From: an uncultured Candidatus Saccharibacteria bacterium
GTDB lineage: Bacteria; Patescibacteriota; Minisyncoccia; Phycocordibacterales; SBAW01
Reading direction: 5' to 3'
NCBI GenBank assembly: GCA_964615415.1
Contig: CAZTNI010000003.1
Location: 15,235-79,234 of the forward strand
DNA: 64,000 nt
Each line of letters starts with the position of its first letter. Position 1 is the stretch's first letter. A model generated the notes under the pieces. That model was not told the DNA's origin, ran no database searches, and was given only the letters and a program-made list of their open reading frames with translations. This document shows, piece after piece, positions 16,495 through 32,109 of this stretch. The translations under genes and the position numbers were made by a program.

Positions 16495-17805
16495 TTATTT
16501 TCTGCCAATCGCTCGATATGTAATATGCTCGGCGAAGTCCTCTTTTTTAAACATGCCCCACGGGTCAATGACCGTTTTAGGTGCCTCGGTTTTATTAAGA
16601 ATCAACACTAATTCGCTAAAGAGGGTATCTTTGTTAGAAATAAATAGGATGTCGGCAGAAGTAACAAGCTCGGATAAAGAGTCGTGATAGGTTGCTTTGT
16701 TGTTAAATACACGCCGTGCTTCTTCAGTGCCCAAGGGTTCAAATATGCTCAATGCGTAACCTTTTTTTACTAATAGCTCAGCGATAGTTCGAGCCTGAGA
16801 GTCTTCCGTGAGAGTAGTTTTTGGTTTGTAGCTGATGCCGAGCATGCCAATTTTTTTTGTCTGAATTTTTTTTGCATGTTCAGTAATTACCTCGCTCATT
16901 CGTTCCGGGATAGTTTCGTTTGTAGAATGAGTCGCAAGCGCAACAGGTGTATTGACGCCGCGTTTGCGAGCCATATTTGCAAATGCAAAATTGTCTCGTG
17001 GAAAACAGGGACCGCCGTACCCTAATCCTGCTTTTAAATACGCAGAGCCTATACGTTTATCTTTCCCCAAGGCGCCGGTGATACTGTCTACATTTGCGTG
17101 GGGGATTTGCTCTGCGAGCATGCTGAGTGTGTTCGCAAAGGTAATTTTCATGGTGACGTAAGAGTTGAGTGCTATCTTTGCCAACTCAACGCTTTCGACA
17201 GACATGCGCTCGGGAATGATGGTGGGGTAGACTGATGTGTAAATGGTTGCGAGGGTGTCTCCGGATTTTTTATCGAACTCTCCTAAAAATATAAAATCTG
17301 GCTTTTCAAGATTTTCAATAACATCTCCAATTGCGATAAGGCTTGGGTTGTAACAATAGCCGAAATCAACCCCACATATTTTTCCTGAAGCGCTCTCAAG
17401 AGCTGGAATAATATACTCTCGTGAATCTCCGGGAAGTACGGTACTTACAACGCATACCAGATGATAGGTGTCTTTCTTTTGCAGTGCTTTTCCTATCTTT
17501 TTGCATGCCTCTACAACATAGTCTACTGAGAACGATCCGTCTTTCTTACTCGGTGTCGGAACAATAATAAATGTTGCATCAGTAAGTGAAACCGCTTCTG
17601 TAATATTTGTTGTCGCTAGGATTCTTTCTTTGTGTTCAGCTATATATTCCGCTAAGCGTGTTTCTTCAACAGGAGGACGGCCTACCGCAAGAGCTTTTAC
17701 TTTTTTTGCATCAATATCCGTACCAACAAGAGTATGTCCCTTGCTCGCATAAAATGCTGTATAACAGCTTCCTAGTTTGCCGAGTCCTACGACAGATAGT
17801 TTCAT
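16495..17805 (-). CDS. Nucleotide-sugar dehydrogenase (UDP-glucose 6-dehydrogenase-like)
   Basis: MKLSVVGLGKLGSCYTAFYASKGHTLVGTDID; catalytic motif GYGGPCFPRDN; 436 aa. The ATG overlaps the stop of the upstream gene (ATGA). Confidence 0.8.
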   Translation of the reverse strand: MKLSVVGLGKLGSCYTAFYASKGHTLVGTDIDAKKVKALAVGRPPVEETRLAEYIAEHKERILATTNITEAVSLTDATFIIVPTPSKKDGSFSVDYVVEACKKIGKALQKKDTYHLVCVVSTVLPGDSREYIIPALESASGKICGVDFGYCYNPSLIAIGDVIENLEKPDFIFLGEFDKKSGDTLATIYTSVYPTIIPERMSVESVELAKIALNSYVTMKITFANTLSMLAEQIPHANVDSITGALGKDKRIGSAYLKAGLGYGGPCFPRDNFAFANMARKRGVNTPVALATHSTNETIPERMSEVITEHAKKIQTKKIGMLGISYKPKTTLTEDSQARTIAELLVKKGYALSIFEPLGTEEARRVFNNKATYHDSLSELVTSADILFISNKDTLFSELVLILNKTEAPKTVIDPWGMFKKEDFAEHITYRAIGRK

Positions 17806-18857
17806 GCGTGTGCGGTAAGTTTGATAGCGGCTGCTTTTTTCTCAACAAGAGGACGAATCCAGTTATAGGTCTGCGTAAGTCCATACTGTAGAGGGAGTGA
17901 TGGAGCCCAGCTAAGTTTTTCTTTAATAAGGCGGTTGTCTGAGTTGCGGCCGCGCACACCAAGGGGGCCAGGGATGTGGTTAATAGCCACCGTGTTGCCG
18001 CCGCTAATCTGCACCGCCATATGTACAAGTTGGTTGATGGTTACCATCTCGTCGGAGCCAATGTTTACCGGTCCGGTAAAATTTGATTGCATGAGGCGCT
18101 CGACACCCTCAAGACATTCGTCGATGTAGAGGAATGAGCGGGTTTGGTTACCATCACCCCAAATTTCCAGATAGGGGAAAGATTGCGTACGAGTTCCGTT
18201 TTGCCAAACCTCCACAGTGCTGCCGAGCTGAGATTCTGCTACTTTGCGACAAATTGCGGCAGGAGCTTTTTCGCGGCCACCAGTCCATGTGCCTTCCGGT
18301 CCAAAAATGTTGTGAAAGCGTGCAATGCGAACAGCAAGGTTTTTGTTACGAGCATAGGCGAGGTAAATACGCTCGCTAAAAATCTTCTCCCATCCGTATT
18401 CAGAGTCTGGTGCAGCGGGGTAGGCAGAGTCCTCGGCACAGTTTGGGTTGTTTGGGTCCATCTGATTGCGTTCTGGGTAGATACACGCAGAGGAAGAGTA
18501 AAAAATAGTTCCGACGCCTACTTTTGCCGCCTGGTCGACTACATTTAAATTGATGGTTGCCGAATTGTGCATGATGTCGGCATCGTTCGCGCCTGTGAAG
18601 ATGAATCCTGCTCCTCCCATGTCGGCTGCAAGTTGGTAAATACGGTCAAAACGACGATCCACCGCCTTGTCTACTACGGCGCGGTCGCGCAAGTCGCCGA
18701 TAATAAACTCGTCCGCAGCAGTAGCAGAGTATTCCGGATATTTAAGATCTACACCACGTACCCAATAGCCCTCTTTTTTGAGACGTTTCACCAAATGACT
18801 CCCAATAAATCCTCCCGCTCCGCAGACAAGTGCTGTTTTTCTTTCGGTGTTCGGCAT
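17802..18857 (-). CDS. GDP-mannose 3,5-epimerase-like NAD-dependent epimerase (SDR family)
   Basis: ATG at 18857 (the track start at 18899 is TTG). GxxGxxG motif VCGAGGFIGSH. The segment RFHNIFGPEGTWTGGREKAPAAICRK closely matches the plant/bacterial GME signature FHNIYGPFGTWKGGREKAPAAFCRK. Confidence 0.6.
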   Translation of the reverse strand: MPNTERKTALVCGAGGFIGSHLVKRLKKEGYWVRGVDLKYPEYSATAADEFIIGDLRDRAVVDKAVDRRFDRIYQLAADMGGAGFIFTGANDADIMHNSATINLNVVDQAAKVGVGTIFYSSSACIYPERNQMDPNNPNCAEDSAYPAAPDSEYGWEKIFSERIYLAYARNKNLAVRIARFHNIFGPEGTWTGGREKAPAAICRKVAESQLGSTVEVWQNGTRTQSFPYLEIWGDGNQTRSFLYIDECLEGVERLMQSNFTGPVNIGSDEMVTINQLVHMAVQISGGNTVAINHIPGPLGVRGRNSDNRLIKEKLSWAPSLPLQYGLTQTYNWIRPLVEKKAAAIKLTAHA

Positions 18858-18917
18858 ACTAATTGCTCGCCATTGTATATGGTTTACCTGTTTAAACAAG
18901 AGTAGAGGGTCTTGTGG

Positions 18918-30562: not shown

Positions 30563-31022
30563 GATTAAGGGTGTCGAATGCGCTGCGGAGTGCTTGTTGT
30601 ACGTACGGATGCCACGTAGGGTCTACTGTTGTGAACCATGCTACTTCCTCAAGCTGACGTGCGTCAGCAGTAACAGTGGGCGGTTCCGACAACTCAAGTA
30701 AGTATAGTACATTTACCGAATGACGGTTCTCGTCGATCGTGGTCCCAGTAAAGATAGACTCTTCAACTCCGATTCGTGTCAATTGGTTTTCTGCTGCAAT
30801 GATCCCAAGTTCTTCCTTCGCTTTTCGTAGTGCGGTTTGCAAGAGCGGTTCTCCTTTATATACGCGTCCTCCTACGGGGAACCACTCTCCCTTGCCAGGA
30901 GCATTCGTTCTTTTGCTGAGAAGAATAGAGCCCTGGTATGTAGGGAGGATGTCAACGCAACAAATGGGAAGCAGTGTCACCATGCGGTCGTACTCTGTTT
31001 GGGGAATGTGCCGTGAGTCCAT
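30546..31022 (-). CDS. gmm: GDP-mannose mannosyl hydrolase (NUDIX family)
   Basis: 158 aa. NUDIX box [23 protein letters not shown]. Sits between fcl and gmd. Confidence 0.6.
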
Positions 31023-31110
31023 ATAAACCTATAACTTAAGTGCAACTAGTAGAAGTGTCAAAAAGTTACTGAGTTGAGTAGTGCGGGGGTTACAAGCTAT
31101 ACTCGGCACT

Positions 31111-32109
31111 ATGAAAAAGGCAGTCATAACGGGGATTACAGGACAAGACGGGAGTTATCTGGCAGAACTGCTTCTTAATAAAGGATACGAAGTGCACGGG
31201 GTGATCCGCCGTTCCTCTACTTTTAATACGTCGCGCATCGATCACCTCTATAAAGATCCTCATTTAACCGGAGTTAAATTATTTTTCCACTACGGTGATA
31301 TTGCAGATGGAAATACGATTCGCAAACTCTTGTATCAAGTGCAGCCGGATGAATTTTACAATCTTGCCGCACAATCCCATGTGCGCGTTTCGTTTGATGT
31401 GCCTGAATATACTGCTGAGGTGACGGGGGTCGGGGTGCTGCGCGCACTTGAGGCTATTAAAGATTATCAAGAAAATACAGGTAAGAAAGTAAAGTTCTAC
31501 CAAGCATCTTCAAGTGAAATGTTCGGTTCTACTCCTCCTCCGCAGTCGGAACTCACGCCGTTTCATCCACGGAGTCCGTATGGTGTTGCAAAAGTGTTTG
31601 CATTCCATACGGTGGTAAATTATCGCGAGGCGTATAACCTGTTTGCAGTAAACGGTATTTTGTTTAATCACGAATCAGAGCGGCGAGGCGAAACGTTTGT
31701 GACGCGCAAGATCGCTCGCGGTGTTGCGCGTATTAAAGCAGGGCTTGATCAGAAATTATATTTAGGCAATTTGGAGGCGAAGCGCGATTGGGGCTACGCT
31801 CCGGAATATGTCGAAGCGATGTGGCTCATGTTGCAGCACGACACCCCTGAAGATTTTGTTATTGGTACAGGCGAAGCCTATAGTGTAGGAGAATTTACAA
31901 AAGAGGCGTTTGGGTACGCGGGCATTTTAGATTGGGAGAATTATGTTGAGATTGATCCACGGTACTATCGGCCTACTGAGGTAGATCATCTGGTGGCAGA
32001 CCCGCGTAAGGCGCAGGAAAAGCTAGGATGGAAGCCTACAACAACCGCGCCCGGCTTAATGCGGATTATGGTGCAACACGAGCTTGATCAGCTTGGGGTA
32101 CCGCGGTAA
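31111..32109 (+). CDS. gmd: GDP-mannose 4,6-dehydratase
   Basis: [47 protein letters not shown] is the canonical Gmd N-terminus. ATG at 31111. Confidence 0.85.

Follow-up and report, generated by a model that had tools for sequence, protein, structure and literature searches.

A Wzm/Wzt-type surface-glycan locus with a GDP-mannose 3,5-epimerase homologue and a ColD-type dehydratase, most likely from an uncultured Patescibacterium

The region described here, part of a 64 kb window (the whole stretch of DNA that was analysed), holds a compact bacterial gene cluster of an ordinary kind, for building a surface polysaccharide from GDP-mannose-derived L-sugars. A ColD-like dehydratase encoded in the cluster suggests that the rare sugar colitose is a product too, either alongside fucose or replacing it. 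We consider it probable, all parts of the explanation taken jointly, that these genes form the core of a surface-glycan locus with ABC-transporter-dependent (Wzm/Wzt) export; the organism is most likely an uncultured member of the Patescibacteria.

Seventeen genes are located on the minus strand, from position 31022 down to 13521, with intergenic gaps of -134 to +76 nt (Table 1). Judged by this spacing they probably form one operon; promoter and terminator scans gave scores no better than those of shuffled sequences. The gmd gene and the Wzy_C/TPR gene downstream of it are in divergent orientation to the operon, and an equivalent of the latter neighbour was found in the relatives L095 and L097-L099. 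The open reading frame of the GT4-like protein overlaps the previous gene by 134 nt, and its true start probably lies downstream of this overlap. All reading frames that an earlier note on this DNA had named (those of Gmd, the Fcl-like, NUDIX and GME proteins, GT11a and GT11b) are present. Among the matches listed, the closest come from Patescibacteria that are uncultured and were sampled in environmental metagenomes, and nothing was found in support of a role in host mimicry, which the same note had proposed.

Table 1. Features of the glycan locus, with positions in the window and the matches behind each assignment.
Feature	Position	Strand	Evidence
GT11b, distant GT11-like (marginal)	9541..10485	+	PF01531 25.5 bits, gathering score 23.9
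DUF218 protein, final gene of the operon	13521..14117	-	PF02698 2.7e-18
GT2 glycosyltransferase, paralogue of 18918-19835	14168..15079	-	PF00535 2e-23
Second, more divergent NDP-sugar 6-dehydrogenase	15093..16418	-	TIGR03026 187.8 bits, cut-off 189.8; PDB AlgD 1.1e-32
DH1, NDP-sugar 6-dehydrogenase, AlgD/AglM-like	16495..17805	-	TIGR03026 302 bits
GME (GM35E) homologue	17802..18857	-	PDB GME 2c59
GT2 glycosyltransferase	18918..19835	-	PF00535 8.8e-23
GT2 glycosyltransferase	19811..20620	-	PF00535 3.3e-26
GT4-like glycosyltransferase	20617..21903	-	PF13692/PF00534, weak
AsnB-like glutamine amidotransferase	21770..23533	-	TIGR01536 491.9 bits; Pfam Asn_synthase + GATase_7
ColD-like, PMP-dependent GDP-4-keto-6-deoxymannose 3-dehydratase	23546..24712	-	PDB ColD 2gms, His-His
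STELLO-like putative glycosyltransferase	24716..25693	-	PF03385 1e-9, C-terminal part only
Possible sugar O-methyltransferase	25690..26640	-	TIGR04371 32.5 bits, cut-off 44
GT11a, alpha-1,2-fucosyl/colitosyl-transferase type	26644..27525	-	PF01531 1.5e-36, full length
Wzt, ABC ATPase with C-terminal glycan-binding domain	27532..28800	-	PF00005, PF14524 Wzt_C; TagH/Wzt-type NCBIfam matches
Wzm, ABC-2 permease, glycan export	28803..29618	-	PF01061 9.6e-17; weak match to galactan export Wzm/RfbD
Fcl-like, GDP-4-keto-6-deoxymannose epimerase/reductase, Fcl/ColC (GMER) family, variant clade	29621..30562	-	NCBIfam and PDB
NUDIX hydrolase, Gmm-like (GDP-mannose mannosyl hydrolase type), operon gene 1	30546..31022	-	Pfam NUDIX 4e-16
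gmd, GDP-mannose 4,6-dehydratase	31111..32109	+	TIGR01472 512.7 bits, cut-off 415
O-antigen-ligase/polymerase-like membrane protein (Wzy_C), C-terminal TPR repeats	32122..34401	+	PF04932 9.6e-20 and TPR families

The genes gmd, fcl and gmm had been described as a canonical GDP-fucose module and a complete branch. The three families were confirmed and are shared with the gmd-fcl-gmm genes of E. coli colanic acid, but only Gmd scores above its NCBIfam cut-off. The NUDIX protein reached 42.5 bits on PRK15434, under the NCBIfam cut-off of 146; its PDB matches below 1e-5 are exclusively GDP-mannose mannosyl hydrolases (1rya/2gt4/2i8t), and its identity to the two Gmm proteins of E. coli is 28-31%. 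For the Fcl-like protein, the top NCBIfam match is GDP-L-fucose synthase (GDPFucSynFcl) with 263.5 bits, under the equivalog cut-off of 500, and the nearest solved structures are GDP-L-fucose synthases (4e-62). The protein retains equivalents of GMER Cys109, Tyr136, Lys140 and His179 and has Thr where GMER has Ser107. In contrast to colanic-acid Fcl, it carries Arg for Lys283 and the glycine motif GGAGFLG for GHxGMVG, and it represents a variant clade. Two further differences from the colanic-acid module are the divergent transcription of gmd and the presence of a ColD-type enzyme, which would compete for the Gmd intermediate. The branch is complete from GDP-mannose onward only: neither manB nor manC was found in the 64 kb window.

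The sugar set predicted earlier, L-fucose and possibly L-galactose, stood for the fucose branch but was incomplete, as the ColD-type 3-dehydratase had been missed. Against PDB structures, this DegT-family protein matched ColD (2gms) with 1.2e-59 (205 bits), E1 with 3e-40 (141 bits) and aminotransferases with 1e-26 or weaker. Where aminotransferases carry Lys, it has a His-His pair that aligns with ColD His188, and His instead of Lys is the hallmark that separates 3-dehydratases from aminotransferases (PMC8987622). We weighed these data against a simpler model with fucose and L-galactose only, in which Gmd and Fcl would provide GDP-L-fucose, GME would provide GDP-L-galactose, the GT11 proteins would be fucosyl- or L-galactosyltransferases, and the DegT-family protein would be an ordinary sugar aminotransferase or irrelevant. 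The Fcl-like clade does adjoin gmd without ColD in L097 and L099, public pipelines label this clade GDP-L-fucose synthase, and GT11a is a full-length GT11. Nevertheless, with His-His for the Schiff-base Lys, a far closer relationship to ColD than to any aminotransferase and conservation inside a cassette with Fcl, GT11 and STELLO, the model appears rather unlikely.

It is very doubtful, too, that the ColD-like protein acts on a CDP- or dTDP-sugar in a pathway of the E1/SpnQ kind, or that another SDR reduces its product, with a 3,6-dideoxyhexose other than colitose as the result. RfbH is its top NCBIfam match, JGI pipelines label homologues as 'CDP-6-deoxy-D-xylo-4-hexulose-3-dehydrase', and the gene immediately after it in L089 codes for a different SDR. 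However, the RfbH score is 215 bits with a cut-off of 423, the PDB score for ColD exceeds that for E1, the length of 388 aa is that of E. coli O55 ColD and not of E1 (437 aa), and the window holds no CDP-glucose synthase, CDP-glucose dehydratase or E3 reductase. Furthermore, gmd adjoins the ColD-like gene in every context with long enough flanks.

The assignment as a GDP-4-keto-6-deoxymannose 3-dehydratase also agrees with the gene neighbourhoods. Four independent contigs of Patescibacteria type (L088, L094, L095 and L096) share a cassette in which Fcl-like, GT11, STELLO-like and ColD-like (His-His) genes occur together, the STELLO-like gene always being immediately upstream of the ColD-like gene; gmd adjoins the cassette in three of them (L088, L095, L096), and the AsnB-like gene comes after the ColD-like gene in L088 and L096. 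In the Zambryskibacteria loci L090 and L091, ColD, NUDIX, Fcl and Gmd are all present.

The O-antigen genes of E. coli O55:H7 (L093) comprise gmd, a Gmm-like NUDIX, the GT11 enzyme WbgN, ColC and ColD. All five families are shared, with identities of 53% for Gmd (the same value for both E. coli Gmd copies), 33% for ColD, 32% for ColC, 28% for NUDIX and 34% for GT11a, and the catalytic His of ColD is conserved. Because the ColD-like gene together with gmd, NUDIX, Fcl/ColC-type and GT11 genes reproduces the O55 colitose gene families, GDP-L-colitose is a likely product beside GDP-L-fucose. In contrast to O55:H7, the locus is devoid of manB/manC, export uses the Wzm/Wzt ABC route instead of Wzx/Wzy, STELLO-like and AsnB-like proteins are extra conserved partners, and the reductase is equally near to ColC and Fcl (32% identity to E. 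coli Fcl as well) in a clade of its own. This clade occurs without any ColD in L097, L099 and L007 and is therefore not ColC-specific, and fucose alone may still be the main product; as the ColD-like enzyme would divert the Gmd product to GDP-L-colitose, the 'fcl' gene may act as ColC. Since the likely host is a monoderm Patescibacterium, the glycan would not be an LPS O-antigen.

The sequences directly show the family membership and catalytic residues of Gmd, GME and the ColD-like protein, the close packing of the operon and the conservation of gene neighbourhoods. In the pathway that we infer, including its substrates, the donor for each transferase and the fucose:colitose ratio, GDP-mannose from synthesis genes outside the window would feed up to three branches. 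In one branch, Gmd would form GDP-4-keto-6-deoxymannose, which a single Fcl/ColC-type epimerase-reductase would convert to GDP-L-fucose. In another, the ColD-type 3-dehydratase would strip the 3-OH of the Gmd product, and the same reductase would then yield GDP-L-colitose (3,6-dideoxy-L-galactose). The GME homologue would turn GDP-mannose into GDP-L-galactose or GDP-L-gulose. The glycan probably also receives a uronic acid or uronamide residue through the pair of AlgD-like dehydrogenases and the AsnB-like amidotransferase.

On sequence grounds, the enzyme encoded at 17802-18857 belongs to the GME clade, as had been proposed. It is 51% identical to Arabidopsis thaliana GME (PDB 2C59) over 314 aligned positions (3.3e-91, 309 bits), whereas the match to UDP-glucuronate decarboxylase reached 6.3e-25 (91 bits), an E-value difference of about 66 orders of magnitude that speaks against a grouping with the latter. 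The sequence FHNIFGPEGTWTGGREKAPAAICRK was found in its translation. All catalytic residues are kept; alignment A1 shows no variation at Ser123, Cys125, Tyr154, Lys158, Lys197 or Arg304, and the sites of GMER His179 and Lys283 are occupied by Lys and Arg, respectively. The discriminators of GME, a Cys acid, a Lys base and an Arg (PMC8787198), are thus all present, and with the Arabidopsis enzyme it shares GxxGxxG, the Ser/Tyr/Lys triad, catalytic Cys and Lys and the Cys-acidifying Arg. Such enzymes are not uncommon in bacteria, contrary to the earlier note: among 600 pattern matches in a one-genome-per-species collection, at least 566 genomes, from many phyla, hold relatives (64-73% identity for the best 80), at least 8000 proteins match below 1e-30, and the literature has had a characterised bacterial GME since 2019 (PMC6678494). 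That enzyme, MfGM35E of Methylacidiphilum fumariolicum, has a glycan biosynthesis context as well (PMC6678494). Unlike it and Arabidopsis GME, the homologue has a 15-residue insertion (residues 215-229, window 18171-18215; a 16-column gap in alignment A1), common only to a small subclade. It directly precedes the GDP-binding strand EIWGDGxQTRSF and looks like a duplicate of it.

A further difference is that GME is translationally coupled to the AlgD-like DH1, with 4 nt shared between the end of the GME gene and the start of DH1. DH1 could be a UDP-glucose or a GDP-mannose dehydrogenase, being equally near to AlgD (6.5e-63; both 436 aa) and to any UDP-glucose dehydrogenase (3vtf, 7.6e-64). The two enzymes might act in sequence on one substrate, either from GDP-mannose via GDP-mannuronate to GDP-L-guluronate or L-galacturonate, or from GDP-L-galactose to GDP-L-galacturonate; the AsnB-like enzyme may amidate the resulting acid, and free GDP-L-galactose would not be the donor used. 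An AlgD-like dehydrogenase follows GME immediately 3' on the same strand in L002, L056, L063 and L069, and AsnB-like genes are near GME in L001, L002 and L020. Among the best 80 of at least 566 relatives, 13 GME loci from several phyla have such a dehydrogenase within 10 kb, but 67 do not. In addition, a profile of GME-linked dehydrogenases is no nearer to AlgD than to archaeal UDP-glucose dehydrogenase, sugar dehydrogenases are widespread in glycan loci generally, shared use of GDP-mannose would equally account for the linkage, and a characterised precedent for the pathway was not found. We therefore regard sequential action as unlikely.

Candidate transferases for the L-sugars would be GT11a, the distant GT11b and the STELLO-like protein. 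The earlier note had named two GT11-like transferases as the likely users of the sugars, and WbgN, a colitosyltransferase of this family, also accepts GDP-fucose (PMC12723683). Gene context lends some weight to the idea that GT11 relatives use the GME product: among the best 80 of at least 566 relatives, six of the seven GME loci with a GT11 homologue are without gmd or fcl within 10 kb. The possible O-methyltransferase next to GT11a gave no significant Pfam match. The assignment of GT11a is solid, whereas that of GT11b is marginal, its PF01531 match being limited to residues 175-279 in the C-terminal half; the two proteins are 25% identical over 126 aa. GT11b keeps the HxRxGDY motif as HIRQGDY, and in L001 a homologue with 44% identity lies 254 nt from GME.

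The locus is, judged by the families of its genes, an ordinary ABC-transporter-type glycan cluster whose enzymes are all members, or mild variants, of known families. The observation of the earlier note was confirmed and its interpretation partly supported, with corrections concerning a ColD-type dehydratase and the colitose it predicts, the wide bacterial occurrence of GDP-mannose 3,5-epimerase (GME), a variant Fcl-like reductase and a coupling of GME with a dehydrogenase. All ORFs named there were recovered at the positions given, and the GME-signature peptide quoted is present in the translation of the GME homologue.

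Features of the glycan locus, with coordinates in the window unless another contig is named
Feature	Coordinates	Strand	Basis
GT11b	9541-10485	+	PF01531, C-terminal half, 25.5 bits (gathering score 23.9); motif HIRQGDY
DH2, AlgD-like NDP-sugar 6-dehydrogenase	15093-16418	-	
DH1, AlgD-like NDP-sugar 6-dehydrogenase	16495-17805	-	
GME homologue	17802-18857	-	PDB match, alignment, residues
ColD-like, DegT family	23546-24712	-	Pfam DegT_DnrJ_EryC1 3.8e-58; PDB ColD; His-His
STELLO-like	24716-25693; L088 9018-10004; L094 5016-5999; L095 11867-12850; L096 11907-12884	- in window	PF03385, C-terminal part only
Putative sugar O-methyltransferase	25690-26640	-	TIGR04371 32.5 bits (cut-off 44); no Pfam family
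GT11a	26644-27525	-	PF01531, full length, 126.6 bits, 1.5e-36; motif HIRRGDF
Fcl-like epimerase-reductase	29621-30562	-	NCBIfam and PDB best match GDP-L-fucose synthase
NUDIX, Gmm-like	30546-31022	-	Pfam NUDIX; PDB Gmm
gmd	31111-32109	+	TIGR01472 512.7 bits (cut-off 415)

In a search of solved structures, the GME homologue matched the Arabidopsis GME structures with 309 bits (3.3e-91), compared with 91 bits (6.3e-25) for the second-best clade, UDP-glucuronate decarboxylase, and 63 bits (about 1e-16) for GDP-fucose synthase. This places the protein with GME rather than with UDP-glucuronate decarboxylase or a different SDR clade, the distinction on which the earlier note had proposed to check its assignment. 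The plant enzyme is 51% identical to the window protein over 314 aligned positions. In our alignment of GME homologues, the extended-SDR GxxGxxG/A motif, here GAGGFIG, is invariant, and among 15 homologues so are the triad Ser123 and Tyr154-x3-Lys158 as well as Cys125, Lys197 and Arg304. GME and the Fcl/ColC epimerase-reductase family (GMER) both use a cysteine as catalytic acid (C145 in Arabidopsis), whereas the catalytic base is a lysine in GME (K217) and a histidine in GMER, and the residue acidifying the cysteine is an arginine in GME (R306) and a lysine in GMER (PMC8787198). In a joint alignment, a lysine of the window protein occupies the His179 column of E. coli GMER and Arg304, within GVRGRNSD, the Lys283 column. 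Since the clade scores, the identity to the plant enzyme and the GME-discriminating residues, all of which are present, agree, membership of the predicted enzyme in the GME family is well supported.

Residues 215-229 of the window GME (18171-18215, minus strand) are an in-frame insertion of 15 residues, visible in the alignment as a gap of 16 columns. Its sequence, VEVWQNGTRTQSFPY, resembles the next strand, LEIWGDGNQTRSF, with 6 of 13 residues and 22 of 39 nucleotides identical, and it is common to about ten database homologues that form a small subclade. A frameshift or an assembly artefact was considered and rejected, because the insertion is in frame and present in these homologues. The similarity suggests that part of the GDP-binding region was duplicated internally long ago.

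The enzyme had been described in the earlier note as uncommon in bacteria, which turned out to be wrong. In a scan with one genome per species, GME relatives were encoded by at least 566 of the 600 listed pattern matches, and a protein search returned at least 8000 proteins scoring below 1e-30 against the window GME. The best 80 relatives are 64-73% identical to the window protein and span Patescibacteria, Nitrospirota, Bacteroidota, Planctomycetota, Alpha- and Gammaproteobacteria and others. Many relatives already carry the JGI annotation "GDP-D-mannose 3',5'-epimerase", and the GME of Methylacidiphilum is a bacterial enzyme characterised in 2019 (PMC6678494). For annotation, the lesson is that GME homologues are widespread among bacteria.

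To learn about the partners of GME, we counted the neighbours within 10 kb in 80 GME loci of other genomes. A GT11 homologue was present in 7 of the 80 loci, 6 of which have neither gmd nor fcl in their flanks, and it lies downstream of GME by 16 nt in one locus (L005) and by 133 nt in another (L028). The position of GT11 genes beside GME in loci lacking gmd and fcl gives modest support to the proposal of the earlier note that GT11 relatives may be able to use the GME product. Thirteen of the 80 loci contain an AlgD-like dehydrogenase, which in four of them (L002, L056, L063 and L069) lies directly downstream of GME on the same strand.

In the window, the start of the dehydrogenase DH1 overlaps the GME stop codon. 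Searched against solved structures, DH1 gave near-equal scores for AlgD (216.8 bits) and for an archaeal UDP-glucose dehydrogenase (3vtf, 219.9 bits), and a profile of 12 GME-linked dehydrogenases reached 315 bits for AlgD and 331 bits for the archaeal enzyme. The second dehydrogenase, DH2, was also searched singly, and UDP-glucose and GDP-mannose as substrates were not separated by these scores. GME and an AlgD-like dehydrogenase acting in sequence would yield a GDP-L-hexuronic acid (L-guluronate or L-galacturonate), a reading to which we assign a low probability. We know of no established biosynthetic enzyme for GDP-L-hexuronic acid. Elsewhere in the window, the 656-residue ORF at 709-2679 (plus strand) combines a GT4 glycosyltransferase with an N-terminally truncated UDP-glucose/GDP-mannose dehydrogenase, which retains N and central domains without the C-terminal nucleotide-sugar-binding domain. 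Gene fusion or gene decay might account for this ORF; a dehydrogenase-like ORF in the contig L088 (12979-13917) is truncated similarly.

The GDP-L-fucose branch, called complete in the earlier note, is complete only from GDP-mannose onward, because neither manB nor manC was found among the ORFs of the 64-kb window. Of gmd, fcl and the NUDIX gene, described in the earlier note as a canonical GDP-fucose module, gmd passes its family cut-off, and the Fcl-like and NUDIX proteins match their families with scores below the respective cut-offs. For the Fcl-like protein, these are 263.5 bits against the NCBIfam equivalog NF047922 (cut-off 500). The NUDIX protein scored 42.5 bits against PRK15434 (Gmm/NudD; cut-off 146), and GDP-mannose mannosyl hydrolases are its only solved relatives below 1e-5; by sequence it is best described as Gmm-like. 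Of the two GT11-like transferases, GT11a is a full-length family member, while the membership of GT11b, which can be aligned to GT11a over 126 residues, is marginal; both carry a version of the family motif HxRRGDY.

The locus also encodes a DegT-family protein, of the aspartate-aminotransferase fold, that the earlier note had overlooked. Its top solved relative is ColD of E. coli O55 (1.2e-59, 205 bits), compared with 141 bits (3e-40) for the CDP-sugar dehydratase E1 and 1e-26 or weaker for true aminotransferases. ColD is a PMP-dependent GDP-4-keto-6-deoxy-D-mannose 3-dehydratase. A histidine in place of the Schiff-base lysine is the key distinction of the 3-dehydratases from aminotransferases (PMC8987622). 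In the ColD-like protein, a His-His pair fills this lysine site and aligns to Ser187-His188-His189 of ColD (GHHMSTIEGG with SHHIATMEGG, in which His188 is catalytic), and the motif is kept in ten homologues. Neither an E3-like reductase nor a CDP-glucose pathway gene was found within the 64-kb window, and gmd lies in the same locus as the ColD-like gene in the window and in L088-L091, L095 and L096. By this proximity to gmd, the substrate may be the GDP-linked sugar that Gmd supplies. When metagenomes were scanned with ColD patterns from single proteins, only 7 loci came up, all distant (23-36% identity).

The O-antigen locus of E. coli O55:H7 contains gmd, a Gmm-like NUDIX gene, a GT11 gene, ColC and ColD. 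Each of these five families is represented once in the window, with identities of 53% for Gmd, 28% for NUDIX, 34% for GT11a, 32% for the Fcl-like and 33% for the ColD-like protein. WbgN, the GT11 enzyme of O55, transfers colitose and accepts GDP-fucose as well (PMC12723683). We read the contexts of the ColD-like homologues and of six proteins closely related to the Fcl-like one, scored the genes again against those of the window, and found the block of Fcl-like, GT11, STELLO-like and ColD-like (His-His) genes again in four independent contigs (L088, L094, L095 and L096). In three of them (L088, L095 and L096) gmd adjoins the block; in L088 and L096 the NUDIX gene adjoins it as well, and an AsnB-like gene follows the ColD-like gene. 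Two Zambryskibacteria loci (L090 and L091) contain ColD, NUDIX, Fcl and Gmd. As judged from these comparisons, colitose is a likely product of the pathway, and fucose may be formed as well. For annotation, "gmd + fcl" should thus not be read as fucose-only where the operon also has a His-His DegT-family protein.

To find out whether the reductase is an Fcl or a ColC, we compared it with both. It is 32% identical to E. coli Fcl and 32% to E. coli ColC, and in a neighbour-joining tree its clade is separate from both. PGAP names a 73% identical homologue "GDP-L-fucose synthase family protein", as it does E. coli ColC. The GMER catalytic columns are occupied by Thr/Cys/Tyr/Lys/His, including the Cys109 and His179 sites. 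At the Lys283 site, the protein and its whole clade (L088, L090/91, L007) have an arginine; E. coli Fcl, E. coli ColC and all canonical Fcl sampled have a lysine there. The glycine motif of the protein and its close relatives is GGAGFLG instead of GHxGMVG, and the closest solved GDP-fucose synthase also differs from the window protein at both sites. Both the arginine and GGAGFLG are traits of GME-type epimerases; the active site is otherwise of the GMER type. The clade occurs with and without ColD, also among the six close homologues sampled: it is coupled to ColD in the window, L088, L090/91, L094, L095 and L096, with gmd in all except L094, and next to gmd without ColD in L097, L099 and L007. 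Because it forms its own clade, occurs in both contexts and combines the GMER-type Cys and His with variant sites, we class the protein as an epimerase-reductase of the Fcl/ColC type, with a probable role in both the fucose and the colitose branch.

Wherever a STELLO-like gene was seen, the ColD-like gene follows it directly, and none was seen where ColD is absent. An AlphaFold single-sequence model of the protein had a mean pLDDT of 37.8. The STELLO-like protein could act on the ColD-derived sugar, either as its transferase or as a modifier. A literature search on CPR/Patescibacteria and colitose or GDP-fucose pathways yielded nothing relevant. Two more ambitious readings, which we consider improbable, are that Gmd, NUDIX, the variant Fcl/ColC, GT11, the STELLO-like and the ColD-like protein form a conserved and as yet undescribed patescibacterial cassette for a surface 3,6-dideoxy-L-hexose, with the STELLO-like protein as a new kind of transferase or modifier, and that the translationally coupled GME/AlgD-like pair makes a GDP-L-hexuronic acid.

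From the NUDIX gene (31022) down to the DUF218 ORF (13521), the genes are tightly spaced (-134 to +76 nt), which suggests one operon of 17 genes; this is based on gene spacing. Promoter and terminator scans of 13000-32500 returned sites no more numerous than in shuffled sequence. Besides the genes already described, the putative operon encodes Wzm, a Wzt with a glycan-binding Wzt_C domain, three GT2 and one GT4 glycosyltransferases and an AsnB-like amidotransferase, in addition to GME and the two AlgD-like dehydrogenases. The putative O-methyltransferase might cap the glycan terminus in a form that C-terminal domains of Wzt proteins recognise. Two of the GT2 genes, at 14168-15079 and 18918-19835 (both minus strand), are clear paralogues with very similar N- and C-terminal sequences that flank the GME/dehydrogenase block, suggesting a local duplication around it.

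A Wzy_C/TPR membrane protein gene follows gmd. The order SecA, Wzy_C/TPR, gmd, Fcl-like is conserved between the window (31111-39212), L095 (2520-10948) and L097 (1-8936), and the downstream glycan genes vary. As relatives share this Wzy_C/TPR neighbour, often beside SecA, the region resembles a constant chromosomal position that houses varying glycan genes. The best matches of GME, the ColD-like and Fcl-like proteins, Wzm/Wzt and a ligase-like protein come from Patescibacteria (Paceibacterota, Saccharibacteria, Zambryskibacteria and relatives), which makes an uncultured Patescibacterium the probable source.

The glycan is predicted to be rich in GDP-mannose-derived L-sugars, namely fucose and/or colitose, plus L-galactose or L-gulose. 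For the host mimicry raised in the earlier note, the analysis yielded no evidence. In the literature searched, we found no description of a surface glycan of any Patescibacterium (candidate phyla radiation). Patescibacteria are believed to live attached to other microbes, which makes a role of their surface sugars in attachment likely. GME, the ColD-type dehydratase and the variant reductase are small and probably easily expressed, which could make them useful for producing rare L-sugar nucleotides.

No tRNA genes were found in the window. Its last 17 kb are occupied by a single ORF of 5791 residues (46525-63900, plus strand), whose first 3000 residues contain at least seven LVIVD repeats (PF08309) as their only recognisable feature.
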